Source: Sphyrna mokarran
Lineage: Eukaryota
Length of the DNA stretch: 64,000 bases
Reading direction: 5' to 3'
Assembly: GCA_024679065.1 (NCBI GenBank)
Contig: JAGIQG010000004.1
Coordinates: 15,438,001 to 15,502,000, forward strand
Numbering within the stretch: the stretch's first letter is position 1; each line of letters opens with the position of its first letter. Below are positions 7,083 to 40,175 of this stretch, piece after piece. The notes beneath the pieces are model-generated. The model was not told the DNA's origin and did not search any database. It saw only the letters and a list, made by a program, of their open reading frames with translations. A program made the position numbers and the translations under genes.

Positions 7083-7988
7083 TTACATCAGGTAAGTAAA
7101 TCATCAGGGAAGGGGCAATGAAGGGGGCAGGAGGCTGCTGATTGTGGCAAATAGGGCAAATAGTATATTTTAGAACAGAGAGGAGTGAATTGGACCAAAG
7201 GTGGTAGAAATGGAGTGAGGAGATGGGAGTGGGGATAGTGGTCAGCCAATCTTGCAGGTTTTTGATTGTGTGGAGATAAAACTGTGTTGACTGAAGGAAA
7301 CACAACTGTTTCTCCTGGGCCCCAAGCAATGTGATAAAAACTCATGAAACAGCTTTCTCTTGCCTTATTTTATTTGCTGGAGTTTACACAAGTTGGGATT
7401 CAAAACTGAAGGATAAATCAGTCAGAAAATAGAAAAGCAATGGCAAGAGAGAGTTCAGAATAAATATATTCCTACAATAAAGCAAATTTCTCCGGGACGA
7501 GCCCGTCATCAGTAATTAACAAAAGAAATTAAGAAAAGTATCAAACTTGAGGAAAGAGCTACAACTGCACAATGATAAATGATAGGTTGGAATATAACAA
7601 GTTGCAGAGAATGATTAAAAGGTAAATCAGGAGGCAGAAATTAGAGTATGAGAGGAAGCCAGCTGGAATTGGAAAAATGGATAGCAAGAGTTTTCTGAGA
7701 TATTTATAAAGACAGTAGATAAAACAGGTATTGATTCTCTAGAAGGTGACAATAGGGAGTTAATAGTAAATAATGAGGAAATAGCAGATGAAGTGAATTA
7801 ATATTTTGCTTTTATATTCACTATAGGTTATAAAACAAATTCCAGGATTAGCTGTAAATCAGGAGGTGGAAGGAAGAGAGTAACTTCGTGGAATTACGAT
7901 CACTAGGGAAGTAGTACTGAGCAAACTAATGGAGTTGTGGACTAATAAGTTTCTGATCCCAATGGGCTTCATCCTAGGATCATAAAAG

Positions 7989-8265
7989 ATGTGGAGATGC
8001 TGGACTGGGGTCAGCTTGATGTCTTCTGCGAGGAAGTTGCTAGCACCTCTTTAATCTATTGTTATTTCTCACTCCACCTGCATTGTCTTTATCTGTGAAG
8101 ACTTGATAAACCTGTAAAGACTCACATTCCAAACATTATCTTGCAATTGAGTCTGTGCCTATATATGCAATGTTTATGTACCCAACTCTCCATTCACCTG
8201 ATGAAGGAGCAGCACTCTGAAAACTCATGATACCAAATAAACCTGGTGTTCTGAGACTTCTTACT
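7989..8265 (+). mobile_element. Penelope-like element terminal fragment with degenerate hammerhead motif
   Basis: CTGATGA 8198-8204, stem GGAGC-AGC-ACTCT, GAAA 8219-8222, then ACCAAATAAACCTG; homologous to 18985-19200 and 36950-37280. Confidence 0.7.
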
Positions 8266-31683: not shown

Positions 31684-33102
31684 ATTGTTTGTGCATGTTT
31701 ATCTTGCATCCATTACATCTCGCACCACTTCAGCTGACTGGTGTTTTTTGTCAATGCGAATGGGTGTATTTAACTTGACAGATCGTTTTGACTTAAAACA
31801 AAAAACCCTTTCAGCAGAAACAAAAACTCAAAGCCCGTTGTGCTTTCGTAAGTGACTGGAAATGATTCTCAGTTGGAAAAGCGGTAGAATTTGCGAGATT
31901 GCAGCCATCAAGGTTATTTAGCAGAAAACACATGAAATGCCATTTGGGCTGACTTACAAATTGGCTTAACACTCCAATAGCATGAATGATCTACCTGCAT
32001 TCATATAAGTTTTAGAACCTTTCAATGAGTAGCAACAGTGCAAGTAAAATAATTGTTGTCTGCTAAGCTCAGAATGATATATCTTTCTCCTAACAGCTAG
32101 ATTGTTACCTAATCAAAGTGTCTTTGATGTAAATATGACAACTGACATAGCTGACAGCCTCAGTAACACTCAAAATGCAAACTTTTCTCAAGTTTGTTTG
32201 GACCTCCTGGAGATTGAACTATGTGACTTAAGCATGAAAGAGAAAACTCCATTAAAACCAACTGCGTGATATTTGACATTTAAATTCACCCAACCACCAA
32301 GATCAAAGATCCCTGAGTTCATTTCAAATTCAGGCCAACATTTCTTTTTAAGGATCGTTATAATAGACTTGGTTATCACAGTGTAAGGTATGCATTCCAA
32401 TATCCTTTACAGTTTGTGGAAATTTACAAAAGGCACATTCCTTTGTTCAGTGTTAGGTTAATAAAACACTTGTACGTATCTTCTAACCAGAGTTTGTCAG
32501 GTTCCTACAGTATAATTTTTTTTTATTCGTGCAACGGATGTAAAGATTATTTCCTTCCCCACCACTTCTACCAACCATTTTGAGTAAGCTATGATGTAAC
32601 TGTAATTCCTTGTTCTCTGGTTGTTGGATTTCTGATGGAAAATAGGACATAAGGTGCAACACTAAAGATGAATATCAAAATAGTTTTATTAAACATCAGA
32701 CAGGTGGAAAATGCTGCTTTGGGCTCTTGTCACTTTTGGTAGGACTTCTAACACTAAGAAATGCGGAGGCAGCAAATGTATGGGGCACAAAAGAACTTAG
32801 AATTCTACAGGATGGTACATACCACCCCAAGATGAATATATACTTCTTTCTTTCTGGATTAAAATCCAGGAAATTTCTATCTAATAGCACAGTGTGAGTA
32901 TCTTCACCATGTGGGTTACAGCAGTTCAGAATAAACTAGCTCACCACCATCTCTTCATGAGCATCCAGGAATGAAAAGAGATTGCAAGTATGGTATATGC
33001 CAGAAATGAATAGAACTAAATACAATTTGTGATTTTAAATTAAAATCTACAATTTTATGCTAAGATGTTCAATATTAGCTGTCAATTTCTTCTTATATTG
33101 AT

Positions 33103-33413
33103 CATAGAATTCCTACTGTGCAAAGGAGGCCACTCAGCCCATTGAGTCTGCACCGAACACAATACTATCCAGTCCATAGCCCCATAACCTCACGTATTTA
33201 TCCTAACTAGCCTCTCTGATACTAAGGGGCAATCTAGCATTGCCAATACACTTAACCCACACATCTTTGGATTGTAGGAGGAAGCAGGAGCACCCAGAAG
33301 AAACCCACACAGACATGGGGAGAATGTGCAAACTCCACACCGACAGTGACCCAAGCCGGGAATTGAACGTTGCTCTTTGGTGCTGTGAGACGCAGTGCTA
33401 ACCACTGTGCCAC
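33103..33413 (-). mobile_element. HE1 V-SINE, CR1-type tail
   Basis: catagaattcctac.gtgca tail, V-domain, head. Confidence 0.88.
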
Positions 33414-34519
33414 TGATGTGTAAGTCATGACAAAGGCACCAAGGGTAAAAATCTGACAATCTCACTTTGGTGGTTGCTGGTAGCTTAAGACTGGAAATAA
33501 TTACATGAACTTTTAGTTAGCATATGATCAAATCCAATGTGTTATCCATGGCTTAATAAATGATAACACATTTTACTTCCCAACATTTTTGGTTCTATGG
33601 GACCAATTATATTTTAGGTTTTTGGGTTTTTTCACTAAGGAAATTCATAGAACCCCGCAACAAAGAAACTGGGATTTTATAGCCACACTTGCCCCAAAAC
33701 TGGAAATCCCTCTTGAGATAAATGGACCTTTGCATGATCCATTCCCTGTCCACTACTATTTCTGTGTTGAGCTGGACAGGAAAGATCCCCCCGGAGATTT
33801 TATTTTCTCTTACTTCTCTACCTCTCTCCCAAACATATGCACTCTTGAGCACAAGTATTCGCTGGTATAATTGCCAACAGCTTGATGTTGCCAACTTAAA
33901 CTTCATTGAAGATGATTTTTGTTCTGGTAATGTTTGATATTAATAATGGTACCACGCATGATAATCAATACTTTATAATACATGTTATTAGAACGGTATA
34001 TGGCTCACATGTCAGAATTTTCTGGGCTCACATGTTACACTATCACTGCCAATGAGAATAAAGAATTTGGTGCTCAGCCAAACTCCATTTATTGCAGCGG
34101 GACTGGAAAATCCCAGCCACAGGCAAGGTTGAAGATTTCTGGCCATAATGTTGTGATGTAAATGATGGCAAAATGATGTGACTGTGTAAATAGTGGAAGG
34201 TATTGGGATGAAAGCAGCACTCATGTAATCACCTAAATCGACTCTACACATATTATTTAATCGAGCAATTCTGACTGAATCATAGAATTATAGAATCCCG
34301 ACTGTGCAGAAGGAGACCATATGGCCCATTGAGTTTGCACTGACCACAATTTAACCCGCCTCATCCCTGTGACCCCAGATATTGACCCTGCTAGAACTCC
34401 CTGATGCTAACTGACAATTTAGCATGCCCATTTACATTTGTCTGCCTCTATTTGATCCTATAATAAAATAAAATTGAATTGCATAGTCACCAATGTCCAA
34501 AGTTATGAAAAGAAATGGA

Positions 34520-35935
34520 TAAAAACAAATTACTGCAGATGCTGGAATCTGAAACCAAAAGAGAAAATACTGGAAAATCTCAGCAGAACTAACAATATCT
34601 ATAAGGAAAGAAAAGAGCTGATATTTCAAGTCCAGATGATCCTTTACCAATGTTAAAAGGTCTCAAAAGTAGAAGATAGTTATATTGCAGGGTGGTGAAT
34701 GAAAGATGAATCATAGCCATAAAAACAAGGGGGAAAGGCTGCTAATGGCAGCCCATAGAGAACACAAAAGGTGTGAATGGCCAAATGGCAGAGAAGTTGA
34801 AATCAGATGGTAAACTGTGGTGGTGGGAGGAAAGCGGGTGAGAAAGAGATAAAATTGAGAATAAAAGGAGAAAGAGAGAGAAAAGGTGAGAAAAGGGAGA
34901 AGAGAATAGGGAAAGAAAAGTGGGGAGGAGAAGAAAAATAAAGATATTCAAGAAAGAAATAAAAGGCAGAGAACAGTTAAAAATGAAATGAAATGAAAAC
35001 AAAGGAGTCAAGGTGAAATAGAGTGAATCATCTGAAGTTACTAATTTGATGTTGAGATTGGAAGGCTGTAAAATACTTCGCTGGAAGATGAGATGCTGTT
35101 CCTCCAGTTTGTGTTGAGCTTCACTGAGATATTGTAGCAAACCAAGGACAGATATGTGGGCACAGGAGCAGGATCATGTTATAAAATGGCAAGCAAGTGG
35201 AAGGTCAGGGTCATGATTGCTTTACTGAGCACCTTCAGTCTGTGTGCAATCACCCAGTCTATACTTGGTCTCTCCCATATAGAGGACACTATAGTGGGAG
35301 AAGTGAATACAATACACCAAATTGAAAGAGGTGCAAATAAAATGCTGCTTAACTGAAAATGAGTGTTTTGGACATTGGATGGTGAGCATAGAAGAGATAA
35401 AGGGGCAAAAGTTGCACATTTTGTGATTGCATGGGAAAGTGCCATGAATGGTGGGAGAGGTGTTGGGTATAGTGAAGGAGTCAACTAGGTTATCCCGGAG
35501 GGAGTGGTCTCTGTGGAATGCTAACAGAGGGAGTGAAGGGAAGATGTGTTTGGTAGTGGCACCCACTGGAAGTGGTGAAAATGCAGAGTCTAATGGGATG
35601 AAATGTGAGAAAAGGGGATTTCTATCCTTGTTCTGGGAGGGAGTGGAGGGGTTGAGGGTTGTGGTGCAGGAGATGGACTGCACGCTGTTGAGGGCCCTTC
35701 GACACGTCTGGGTGGGAAACCACAGTTGAGGAAGAAGGATCACATTAGAATCCCCACTTTAGAAAATGGCATCATTGGATCAAATGTGATGGAAGCAAAG
35801 GACCTGAGAGAAAGGAATAGAATCCTTACAGGATATAGGGGCAAGGAGTTATGATCCAGATAGCTGAGGGAGTCAGTGGGCTTGTAATGGATATGGATAG
35901 ATAGTCTACTGTTGGAAATGGAGACAGAAAGGCCA
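34520..35935 (-). mobile_element. Decayed Penelope-like retroelement (RT end, GIY-YIG endonuclease, pLTR)
   Basis: IHYKPTDSLSYLD; FICTSFNLVYCIHFSHYSVLYMGETKYRLGD (GIY-YIG); KLEEQHLIF; degraded hammerhead at ~34615-34650. Confidence 0.88.
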
Positions 35936-36217
35936 AGGAAAAAATAGAAATGGACTTTTTCTGCAACAAGAGAAAATAGCATAGATACCTTTAAGGGGAA
36001 ATCACATACACATTAGGAATAAAGGAATGGAAGGCCATGCAGAAAGAGTTAGAAAAGAGAGCTTGGAGAAGGCTTGTGTAGAACATAAAGGTCAGAACAA
36101 GGTATGAATGTTTCATTCAATCACTTTATTTTAATAGCTTTGGTAAGTTTTGCACTCAGCTTCTGAATATCAATCTGGTGAATCATAAATGCCAGTCACT
36201 TCAAGTAGTGTCATCAT

Positions 36218-36465
36218 AGAACAATAGAACATAGAACATAGAACACTACAGCACAAACAGGCCCTTCGGCCCACATGTTGTGCCGATCATATCTATACCT
36301 ATCAGGCCATAGAACTATCTGTTACTCCTAATCCTATTAAATCCCATGTATTCATCCAGAAATCTCTTAAAAGACTCCAGCGAGTTCACCTCTACCAACA
36401 CTGATGGCAACCGATTCCATTCACTCACCACCCTCTGAGTGAAAAACTTACCTCTAACATCTCCA
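36218..36465 (-). mobile_element. Young CR1 3' end
   Basis: GDVRGKFFTQRVVSEWNRLP; (TAGAACA)n tail. Confidence 0.9.
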
Positions 36466-36525
36466 TTGGCTAATATAATTAGACTTATCACACCTAAATG
36501 TGTTGCCTGCATTACAATAATGTTA

Positions 36526-36829
36526 AGAACTCAGTAAGAATTTAGCAACACCAATTATTAATCCAACCGATTTATTTGATAGTAAAAAAGCGAGCTTTCA
36601 TCACTCCCGTGTCTTCATCAGGCAAGTGCAGTGTTCTGGTCTGCAATCTCTGACTGTCTGTGCTGATGTGTGCTATTGCAGACCAGAACACTGCACTTGC
36701 CTGATGAAGACACGGGAGTGTTGAAAGCTCGCTATTTTACTATCAAATAAATCGGTTGGATTAATAATTGGTGTTGCTAAATTTTTACTGAGTTCTTACC
36801 ACTCCAATCCAACGCCGGCATCTTTACAT
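36526..36829 (+). mobile_element. Palindromic Penelope-derived mini-element with intact hammerhead core
   Basis: 124-bp IR 36524-36647/36675-36798 (3 mismatches); 16-bp TSD CATTACAATAATGTTA at 36510-36525 and 36830-36845. Confidence 0.85.
36699..36732 (+). ncRNA. Minimal type I hammerhead ribozyme motif
   Basis: GC-CUGAUGA-A-GACAC(GGGA)GUGUU-GAAA-GCUC-GC: core boxes, GNRA-capped stem II, palindromic AGCU stem III. Confidence 0.7.
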
Positions 36830-36949
36830 CATTACAATAATGTTATGCAGACAGCAACTTGGGTGAACAACTAAATGAAATGAGGAAGCTTTCATGCACT
36901 TCCCTCGTTTATATAAGAAAGTAGCTGAAACTAAAGTTGATTTATTTCT

Positions 36950-37280
36950 TGTCTCAGGCCAGAACAATTAGTAGGATTTTATAAACCTCCACCACACTGC
37001 CTGTGTTTGCAAAATCCTGCTAATTGTCCTCGCTTAAGACAATTTACATCTCTTTAACCTCTGATTATCACTGTCTCTATGCAGACTGTTCATATCTGTA
37101 AAGACTTGACTCCCTGTAAAGACTCACATTCCAACCATTCCTCACGTTCTAATCTGTAATTACCTTGCAATTGTGTCTTTGTCTGTGTATGCCATGTTTG
37201 TGATCTAACCTCCACTTACCTGGTAAAAGAGCAGCGCTCTGAAAGCTTGTGATTCCAGAAAACCTGTTGGACTTTAAAAT
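36950..37280 (+). mobile_element. Penelope-like terminal fragment with 5' inversion and degenerate hammerhead
   Basis: IR acaattagtaggattttataaac/gtttgcaaaatcctgctaattgt; CTGGTAA..AGAGC-AGC-GCTCT-GAAAGCTT at 37220-37248. Confidence 0.65.
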
Positions 37281-37539
37281 GAGATAGTAAAGCTTTAATC
37301 AGCTCCAGGGCCTTTAGTAATGCACCTCAAATAATGCTGCTGAACCGCTTGTTAAGCTGTAAGCAAGTACTTAATATTCTCCAGCCTGTAAAAGTTGGCT
37401 GGTATAACTTGGTGATGTGATTGACTCCAGTGCTTTATTTTGCTCTGGTTGACTCAGGTAAAAAAAAATATGGAAAATTCAATGTCCAAATTACCCTGTA
37501 TCACTCATCCCTATATGTTTTTAAATTTTAAAATTATAA

Positions 37540-37833
37540 AGTTCATTTATTAGTGTCACAAGTAGGCTTACATTAACACTACAATGAAATGACTGTGAAA
37601 ATCCCCTAATTGCCACACTTTGATTCTTTCTGTGAAAATTGAGGGAGAATTTAGCTTGGCCAATGCAGCAAACCAGCACATCTTCCGGACTGTGGGAGGA
37701 AACCAGAGCACCCAGAAGAAATATATGCAACCACGGGGAGAATGTGCAGACTCAGCACAAGCAGTGAAGCAAGCCGGGAACTGCACTGTGACCCCTGGTG
37801 CTGTGAAGTAGCGGTGCTAACCACTGTGCCATC
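37540..37833 (-). mobile_element. HE1-like SINE, alternative tail
   Basis: Reverse tail, V-domain, head. Confidence 0.85.
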
Positions 37834-39094
37834 GTTAATGTTAACATACTGTATTTATAATGGTAATCATGCTATGTTTTATTTTAATGTTAACAGTTGA
37901 TAGTGTGTTGTAGAATAATGACAAAACTCATTCCTGTTCTTACTACCCGTAATGATACACATAAGGGACTTTTTTACAAAAACTGTGACAATGAGACCAA
38001 ACCTTACAATTATAAAGCAAGATGAGAGACCCGTGGGCGTGTACATACAGACATTTTTGAAGGTGGTAGGGTATAGCTGTTTAAAAAATAAAGTGTTAGG
38101 ATCCTTGGCTTCATAAAGATGGGAGTATTAACTCTCAAAAATTGTTGAACTGGGAGTTAGTGGATAGCTGTTCTTGCCTTATGAGTGCATTCTAGTTCCT
38201 ATGTATTCACTGAGATTTAACTGATGTTTATTTGGATGATGGTGAGGAATCTACATCCCAAAATCGGCCATTTCTTAATTGGGTGCCTCTAGGGCAATTC
38301 AACATCTGTTAATAAGTTCTCTTTAATTGTTTTTAATTTGGCTCCAACTTTAACCAAAGCAGAATTTCCTGGCACTGAGGAAAAGGTGAGTTCAGCAGCA
38401 ATTCAGGTAAATATTTAAACTTAATACTATCCCAGCTAAATAAAAACTGAGAGACTTAATAAAACTGCCGTCTTGTTTTCTTGGGAAATGTTTGGTGTTT
38501 GTGTGGGCATAGCTTTTTTCCAACTTTGAGGATGTTACTTTTACAAATGTCAAATGGTGGCAAATGCCTATGGTTGACAGCACTTCAGAAGAGGAAACCC
38601 ACTTCAGCTGGTGGTGATGGGATCAGCCATATACACAGCAAGAGATTCACAGGAGAGACACTGAGGTTGCCATCAATACTATCTGTGGCACAGGGTTTAC
38701 AGTCAGGTGCTTAGCTTCCCTTACCTCTCAGAAGAGCAGTATCAGGTTGCCGCATTAGGTGGTGGCAGGAATCCTCTGTCTCATACAATTCTTTGGCCTC
38801 AACTATTTATAGACCATACCAATGAGGAAACCAAAGTGTAATATATTCAGGTTCACTGATGATAGGTGAAAAAGTAAGCTATGAGGAGAATTACATGAAG
38901 AATTACATTAAGCTATTGGGAAAGAAGGTAGGAATGGAGTTTACTATGTGGAAGTGAGAAATGATCTACTTTGGTAGAAAAAAATTGAGAGTTGGAATAT
39001 TTGTCAGAAAGTTAGAGACTAAATAAATTGCTATTCAATGGGATTGGGAGATGTTATATGCAGAAAGTTAGCACGCAAGAAATTTATTTTATAA

Positions 39095-40175
39095 TTCTTC
39101 ATGGAATGTGGGCATCACTAATTAGGCCAGCATTTATTGCCCATCACTAATTATCTTTGAAAAAGTGGTTCAGAACATTATTCTTGAATGGCTTTAGTTC
39201 ATGTAATATAAGTACACCTATAGTGCTGTTAGGAAGGACATCCCAGGGGTTTGACCCAGTGACAGTCAAGGAATGGTGGTATAGTTTCAAGTCAGAATGA
39301 TGTATGGCTTGGAGGAGAACTTATAGATGGTGGTGTTCTCATGAGTCTACTATTCTTGTCCTTCAAGGTGACAGAGGACGTGGGTTTGGAAGGTGTTATT
39401 GAAGAGCTGCTGCAATGCATCTTATCCACACTCACACTACTGTGTCTTGGTAGTAAAAAAAGTGAATATTGATAGAAAGCGGATATGGCGCCAATAAAGT
39501 AGGCTGCTTTGTCCTGGAGGATGTCAAGCATCTTGTGTGTTGTTGGAGCTGCACTCATCCATCACACACCCGATTTGTGCGTTGTAGATAGTGAACAGGC
39601 TTTGAGGAATCAAGAGGTGAGTTACTCGCCACAGGATTCCCAGTCTCTGGTCTGCCCTCATAGGCACTGTATTTTTTGTGGCTGGCCCAGTTCAGTTTAT
39701 AATCAATGGTAACCTGCAGGACATTGATAGTGGGGGATTCAGTGATGATAATGCAATTGGATGTTAATTGGATGATTGGGTTCTCCCATGTTGGAGATGG
39801 TCATTGCCTGGTACTTGTGTGGCATGAATGTTACTTGTCACTTATCAGCCCAAACCTAAATATTTTCCAGGTTTTTCTGCACATCAACATGAACTACTTC
39901 AGTATCTGAGGGGTCATGAATTGTGCTGAACATTATGCAGCCAACACTTCTGATTCTATAATGGAGGGAAGGTCATTGGTGAAATACCTGAAAGTGGTTG
40001 AGCCTAGTACACTACACCAAGGAACTCCTACAGTCCTAGGACTGAAATATTGATCTCCAACATCCCAACCATCTACCCTTGTGCCAGGTGTGACTCCAAT
40101 CATGGAGAGCTTTTCCCCTGATCCTCATTAACTTCCAATTTTGCTGTACTACCTTGTCACCACACTTGGTCACAT
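39095..40175 (-). mobile_element. Family B non-LTR retrotransposon, ~1.1-kb 3' part
   Basis: ggaatgtgggcatc..ggccagcatttattgcccatc tail; APTTHKMLDILQDKAAYFIG RT C-terminal remnant. Confidence 0.75.

Follow-up and report, generated by a model that had tools for sequence, protein, structure and literature searches.

The window analysed here is a 64,000-nucleotide stretch of the Sphyrna mokarran genome (contig JAGIQG010000004.1). It contains a 304-bp insert at 36526-36829, bracketed by exact 16-bp repeats at 36510-36525 and 36830-36845. Two arms of 124 bp each, at 36524-36647 and 36675-36798 (the last 2 TSD bases included), face each other around a 27-nt loop, and a 31-nt tail follows the right arm. 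The arms are mismatched at three positions: 36538/36784 (a G-U wobble in the plus-strand RNA), 36588/36734 and 36601/36721. A preliminary description of this DNA had reported a 304-bp palindromic insert with a perfect 16-bp TSD, and arms, mismatches, loop and tail of these sizes; all were confirmed, the arm length counting 2 TSD bases. Eleven of the 16 TSD bases are unambiguous, since CAT (3 bases) also fits the element's own end and TA (2 bases) the left arm. Family coordinates are counted from the base preceding the ORF ATG, which is position 0 (window position 36830). The features, which belong to a Penelope-like element (PLE), are as follows.

36507-36509, plus strand: half-site CTG of the symmetric target motif found in the family; empty-site spacing 18, compared with the usual 16-17
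36510-36525, no strand: left TSD, 16 bp, the last 2 nt of which also fit the left arm
36524-36647, minus strand: inverted arm without a tail, covering the PLE pLTR from about -32/-34 to -153
36592-36621, minus strand: minimal type I hammerhead core within the inverted arm, with an A-A mismatch in stem II
36643-36647, no strand: 5-nt inverted microhomology at the junction, with its partner at 36675-36679; family copy L045 has this 5-mer ahead of its loop
36648-36674, plus strand: 27-nt loop, ordinary pLTR from -182 to -156 that runs on into the right arm
36675-36798, plus strand: right arm, PLE pLTR
36701-36730, plus strand: minimal type I hammerhead core of the right arm, with an additional A ahead of stem II and predicted cleavage after C36730
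36799-36829, plus strand: 31-nt tail, which stops where the ORF of the autonomous element has its start codon
36830-36845, no strand: right TSD, 16 bp, the first 3 nt of which also fit the element's continuation
36848-36850, plus strand: CAG half-site of the target motif

The insert was absent from a 575-nt contig of a relative, in which 36216 is joined to 36854 with 71 letters between them, compared with 637 here; a neighbouring repeat is missing there too, and no single TSD copy was legible at the junction. The view of the preliminary description that the insert is young is supported. The repeat at 36215-36469, which is missing from the relative's contig along with the PLE stub, is of very high copy number and is headed by a 7-nt tandem unit. 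Another high-copy repeat, at 37040-37280, has a degenerate hammerhead-like end and is probably another PLE remnant. Elsewhere in the window, hammerhead-core-like motifs occur at 8198-8222 (plus strand), resembling the pLTR of a different PLE family, and at 7487-7512 (minus strand). A decayed GIY-YIG-like frame with CxxC motifs at 35222-35758 (minus strand), likely from an older PLE, is 30% identical with the family protein across 60 aa (pairwise E 2e-4). Window ORFs of at least 130 aa resemble repeat fragments.

We searched the genome with the right arm and tail and obtained at least 49 matches (40 scored of 303 candidates), while exact matches numbered 2,443 for the core motif and 10,233 for one 24-mer of the arm. 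Sister copies run on upstream into coding sequence, an ORF with RT plus GIY-YIG, and window sequence 36648-36829 (right arm, loop and tail) is the last 182 nt of a PLE, which bears out the Penelope origin first suggested for the insert. Copy L045 (3283-5961) has an 893-codon open frame (893 aa) with an RVT_1 match (E 2.6e-9) and a DKG motif. The GIY-YIG match of L045 (E 1.8e-4) scored 22.2 bits, 0.4 bit under the Pfam cut-off of 22.6, and about 70 residues of the frame are read in a different frame from sister copies. Four residues of the parent protein (C798, C802, H822 and H838, read by eye) form a CCHH feature of the type defined for EN+ PLEs in PMC8557442. The linker ahead of the endonuclease contains CX4CxxC (C755-x4-C760-xx-C763), which fits the CX2-5CxxC criterion of the Neptune clade; PMC8557442 gives this linker motif as common to Neptune and Nematis. 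Judged by these residues, CX4CxxC and CCHH point to a family of the Neptune or Nematis type. The nearest proteins among the matches listed were unannotated shark proteins with 71-74% identity, and no named reference PLE was found among the 120 protein matches listed.

The full family unit is 3,027 nt, with the tail finishing at the start codon, and copy L033 shows the full layout of inverted copy, pLTR, ORF, pLTR, tail and 13-bp TSD. The family has the traits that serve as criteria for EN+ PLEs: RT and C-terminal GIY-YIG in a single ORF, CCHH, tandem or inverted pLTRs with a one-sided tail and TSD, and a minimal type I hammerhead. Insertions of EN+ PLEs with an inverted, 5'-truncated pLTR and a tail have been published (PMC3846280; PMC8557442, Fig. 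2 legend), so that the preliminary description was right to call the inverted pLTR plus tail a known Penelope structure. The likeness extends to the head-to-head inverted copy, the one-sided 30-40-nt tail, the TSD, the heavy 5' truncation, the hammerhead in the pLTR, and the ORF with RT plus C-terminal GIY-YIG; the difference is that both arms of the window insert are stubs without an ORF. The insert is a 5'-truncated stub of an abundant endonuclease-positive PLE, one of thousands, and is itself most likely inert.

We read the plus-strand core according to the minimal hammerhead layout in PMC4209133. The same core had been claimed for both strands; cores are present at 36701-36730 and 36621-36592, but the minus-strand copy departs from the other by its A-A mismatch in stem II. 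In both cores, stem I has just 2 contiguous pairs, and position 10.1-11.1 is G-U. The suggested Infernal check gave no hammerhead: Rfam covariance models applied to 33000-40000 at E<=10 produced 11 matches, all of them hairpin-driven miRNA models below their gathering scores. This miss is expected because the motif is without a stem III loop. A transcript hairpin competing with the ribozyme fold had also been proposed, and folding agreed with it, as the long hairpin predicted for a read-through RNA (-217 kcal/mol) excludes the ribozyme fold. For stem II, the predicted pairing probability was below 1e-6 when the whole plus transcript was folded and 2-3% for a 56-nt piece folded alone. The folding model thus predicts hammerhead cores on opposite strands that are buried in the hairpin.

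Among the sister arms, the hammerhead core was intact in 84/101. The GCUC site was kept in 81 of these 84 cores, and position 7 varied among them (G 42, T 28, A 10, C 4), as expected if the parent elements retain a working motif. At pLTR positions -135 to -94, hammerhead stem I ranges from 2 to 6 contiguous pairs between subfamilies, and the window's subfamily has 2. In one sequencing run, presumed to be RNA, coverage was restricted to repeats. We also considered hammerhead cleavage as the origin of the 5' ends and rejected it, the lone entry at -99 among 248 arms being another PLE family; arm ends up to 40 nt upstream of the anchor numbered 26/248. The hammerheads in the insert are likely passengers carried along with the pLTR.

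The preliminary description had inferred a non-coding, retrozyme-like unit, and we weighed the corresponding explanation, in which the palindrome would be a non-autonomous unit of the retrozyme or MITE type, self-cleaving after transcription and propagated as a whole. Such a unit would suit the frequency of short palindromes, with 38/100 arms ending between -150 and -128, just upstream of the core (single copies do so too), and the presence of a different centre at 22 loci, although the TSDs of the 2 inspected differ. The centre of the window's palindrome tells against it. With up to 2 mismatches allowed, this centre occurred at only 2 loci genome-wide; the second, L081, differs both in its TSD and in which arm bears the tail. 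This single recurrence makes it likely that each insertion forms its palindrome anew; L081 has the same centre because the 27-nt loop is flanked in the family by a 5-nt inverted repeat. The opposite strands of the cores, the stem II pairing probability in the full plus transcript, the spread of arm lengths from about 50 nt to 2.8 kb, and the finding that, among 248 arms examined, none of this family begins at the cleavage site also argue against a unit copied whole. Non-LTR retrozymes (bioRxiv 10.64898/2026.07.22.740005) consist of same-strand units in tandem, with two or more hammerheads in succession. The window insert resembles them in being non-coding, in its type I hammerhead and in its PLE pLTR-related sequence, but it has one core per strand, and no tandem array was found over the insert. 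The cores lie on opposite strands, at the end of an autonomous RT/GIY-YIG family, and the centre is not copied whole; a retrozyme-like unit is not supported. We consider this explanation largely refuted already and very improbable, and the default label of retrozyme is unwarranted for hammerhead palindromes with TSDs in such genomes.

To describe the insertions of the family, a first set of 54 head-to-head pairs was chosen by eye, with a bias toward window likeness or an intact core. In 46/54 pairs the TSD was exact and 10-16 bp long (mode 13). Among the 92 outer ends of these 46 pairs, 45 lay at -4 to +7, 44 at -45 to -32 and 2 at -82/-87, and 1 was unplaced, showing that the outer ends use two fixed sites about 40 nt apart. 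Zero matching bases between the TSD and the element end were seen at 5/45 tailed and 12/46 tailless ends, against a chance estimate of about 56%. The centres are variable. In 50 pairs of the first set (2 compound pairs, 1 two-tailed and 1 unclear were left out, and 2 inner ends were placed by hand), the longer arm was the tailed one in 18 and the tailless one in 10, and the arms were within 10 nt in 22. A second, less biased set was drawn from the first 100 listed matches of the arm 24-mer; its 19 further pairs (2 duplicates, 1 compound pair and 2 tailless-only pairs excluded) gave 5, 4 and 10, respectively. Combining both sets, the tail was on the shorter arm in 14/69 pairs and the centres were within 10 nt in 32/69. 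Exceptions to the one-tail rule were L040:3372-6143, with two tailed arms, and L134:396-1968 and L166:448-1440, without a tail. Insertions of the family normally have head-to-head arms of any length, a one-sided tail and a TSD of 10-16 bp. Two cases, L051/L132 and L102/L176, have an identical insertion and flanks twice on one contig and are segmental or assembly duplicates.

The target sites share a symmetric motif. TG-N16/17-CA was present in 37/46 targets of the first set. In the second set, 18/24 pairs had a TSD and 16 of these 18 new targets had the motif, compared with 0.7 on average and at most 4 in a random-flank control (500 draws). After similar targets were grouped, the motif was found in 45/57, and in 11/13 of the wholly new ones; full CTG and CAG were present in 25/57. 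At the window locus the TG-CA spacing is 18, outside 16-17, and its 16-bp TSD is the longest in the set. Independent insertions were observed at the same position of different copies of host repeats (L046, L054, L127, L154 and L175; L023 and L033), in line with sequence-specific targeting. These host repeats are probably CR1-type LINEs. The symmetric CTG...CAG preference differs from the AT-rich or microsatellite targets described in PMC3846280 and PMC8557442. A mostly open-access literature on PLE twin priming, cryo-EM, Neptune target preference, shark hammerheads and self-priming yielded no description of a symmetric target or of two-template arms, which does not establish novelty.

We then compared the two arms within insertions. 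Discordance at polymorphic sites was 61/697 (8.8%) within an insertion versus 40% between insertions; therefore, both arms come from one subfamily. A site was scored as segregating when both letters were found in three or more other insertions. In 23 pairs with at least 150 shared positions, 51/150 non-CpG arm differences fell at family-segregating sites (40/128 without two tailless pairs). In 13 pairs chosen as young, a choice that inflates the ratio, 28/38 differences fell at segregating sites, which make up 4.4% of positions. Four insertions, L023, L102, L174 and L175, had 3, 5, 3 and 3 family-shared arm differences, respectively, and 0 private ones. The window's arms differ at one segregating site, -96. 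Because the haplotypes of segregating sites are mosaic, a recurrent hot-spot change could mimic two templates. Between -923 and -46, segregating non-CpG sites are mostly A/G or C/T transitions with mosaic linkage, which could be caused by RNA editing or template switching. T at -46 was dropped as a two-template marker, its excess in batch 1 following from the use of the window's right arm as query. These comparisons indicate that the two templates are usually of the same subfamily and often non-identical.

Two templates per insertion could also mean two events, and would be accounted for if the palindrome arose only once the element was in place, through DNA repair or the arrival of a second copy alongside the first. 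However, one exact TSD encloses both arms in 46 of the 54 pairs of the first set, and the one-tail rule is obeyed in nearly all pairs. The placement of the TSD already refutes a post-insertion origin, to which we give almost no credence.

In L1 twin priming, two nicks prime two cDNAs, which copy different parts of one RNA and are joined at microhomology, giving a 5' inversion inside one TSD. Unlike in L1, both cDNAs of the window's family cover one and the same region; a palindrome results, and two copies of the template are likely required. We consider it likely, with good but not full confidence, that the insert is a 5'-truncated head-to-head PLE insertion made by two target-primed reverse transcriptions joined mid-way, and we infer paired nicks, two primings and joining by microhomology. 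First, a paired GIY-YIG nuclease would nick both strands about 13 nt apart inside the symmetric CTG...CAG site. Each 3' end, aided by 1-2 nt of pairing, would then serve as primer for the reverse transcription of element RNA, one from the start codon of the ORF, the other from about 35-40 nt upstream, which would produce the one-sided tail. The cDNAs, reaching about -181 and -153 at this locus, would anneal through the 5-nt inverted microhomology, and fill-in and repair would yield the palindrome and the TSD. The nuclease may act as a dimer, as suggested by the symmetry of the target and by analogy with PMC11167929. The sub-threshold GIY-YIG match, the locus spacing of 18 and the exceptions L040, L134 and L166 stand against this explanation.

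The origin of tandem or inverted PLE insertions is called an open question in PMC8557442, and the standing proposal, in PMC3846280, is self-priming on an antisense template. In a fold-back of this kind, one cDNA (or antisense RNA, as in PMC3846280) folds onto itself at an inverted microhomology and serves as its own template, and at most a short second priming attaches the other end. Junctions located at inverted microhomologies and subfamily variants common to both arms agree with fold-back copying, which also predicts the alike arms (8.8% versus 40%) and the near-equal centres in 32/69 pairs. Fold-back alone, however, cannot give a tail on the shorter arm, as seen in 14/69 pairs including L081, the twin of the window's junction. 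It also predicts only private or CpG differences between arms, whereas L023, L102, L174 and L175 have shared differences and no private ones. We regard fold-back as unlikely, though clearly less so than a retrozyme-like unit or a post-insertion origin; some copies may have arisen by fold-back combined with a brief second priming. The features of the sister copies agree better with the proposed twin priming, in which a paired nuclease would act and two RNAs would serve as templates, than with the published self-priming.

In vitro work on a Poseidon element speaks in favour of twin priming. According to the available text of PMC11167929, this PLE nicks and extends both strands in vitro, two internal start sites flank the tail, and a dimer is predicted; inverted repeats are not derived there from the both-strand activity or the two starts. 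The window's family resembles Poseidon of Anolis carolinensis (PAc) in having two RT starts that bracket the tail and in using both strands. In that text, the PAc hammerhead is dispensable for in vitro insertion and overlaps the ORF start, with initiation 111-118 nt into the ORF, whereas in the window's family the hammerhead lies about 100-130 nt upstream of the ORF and the tail ends at the ATG. The CX4CxxC linker is present in the window's family and absent from Poseidon.

A broader reading, for and against which we would give even weight, is that PLE integration is performed by a two-fold symmetric machine. Paired nucleases would act on CTG/CAG half-sites 16-17 nt apart, two RTs would copy two RNAs from two fixed sites, and stubs of 130-150 nt would be the run-off of an mRNA 5' leader starting just upstream of the hammerhead. 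If this symmetric machine exists, the inverted repeats and one-sided tail of PLEs would be the direct product of twin priming. The young and abundant family described here offers three genomic tests of the self-priming proposal, and its target motif and two start sites provide a concrete substrate for the in vitro system of PMC11167929.
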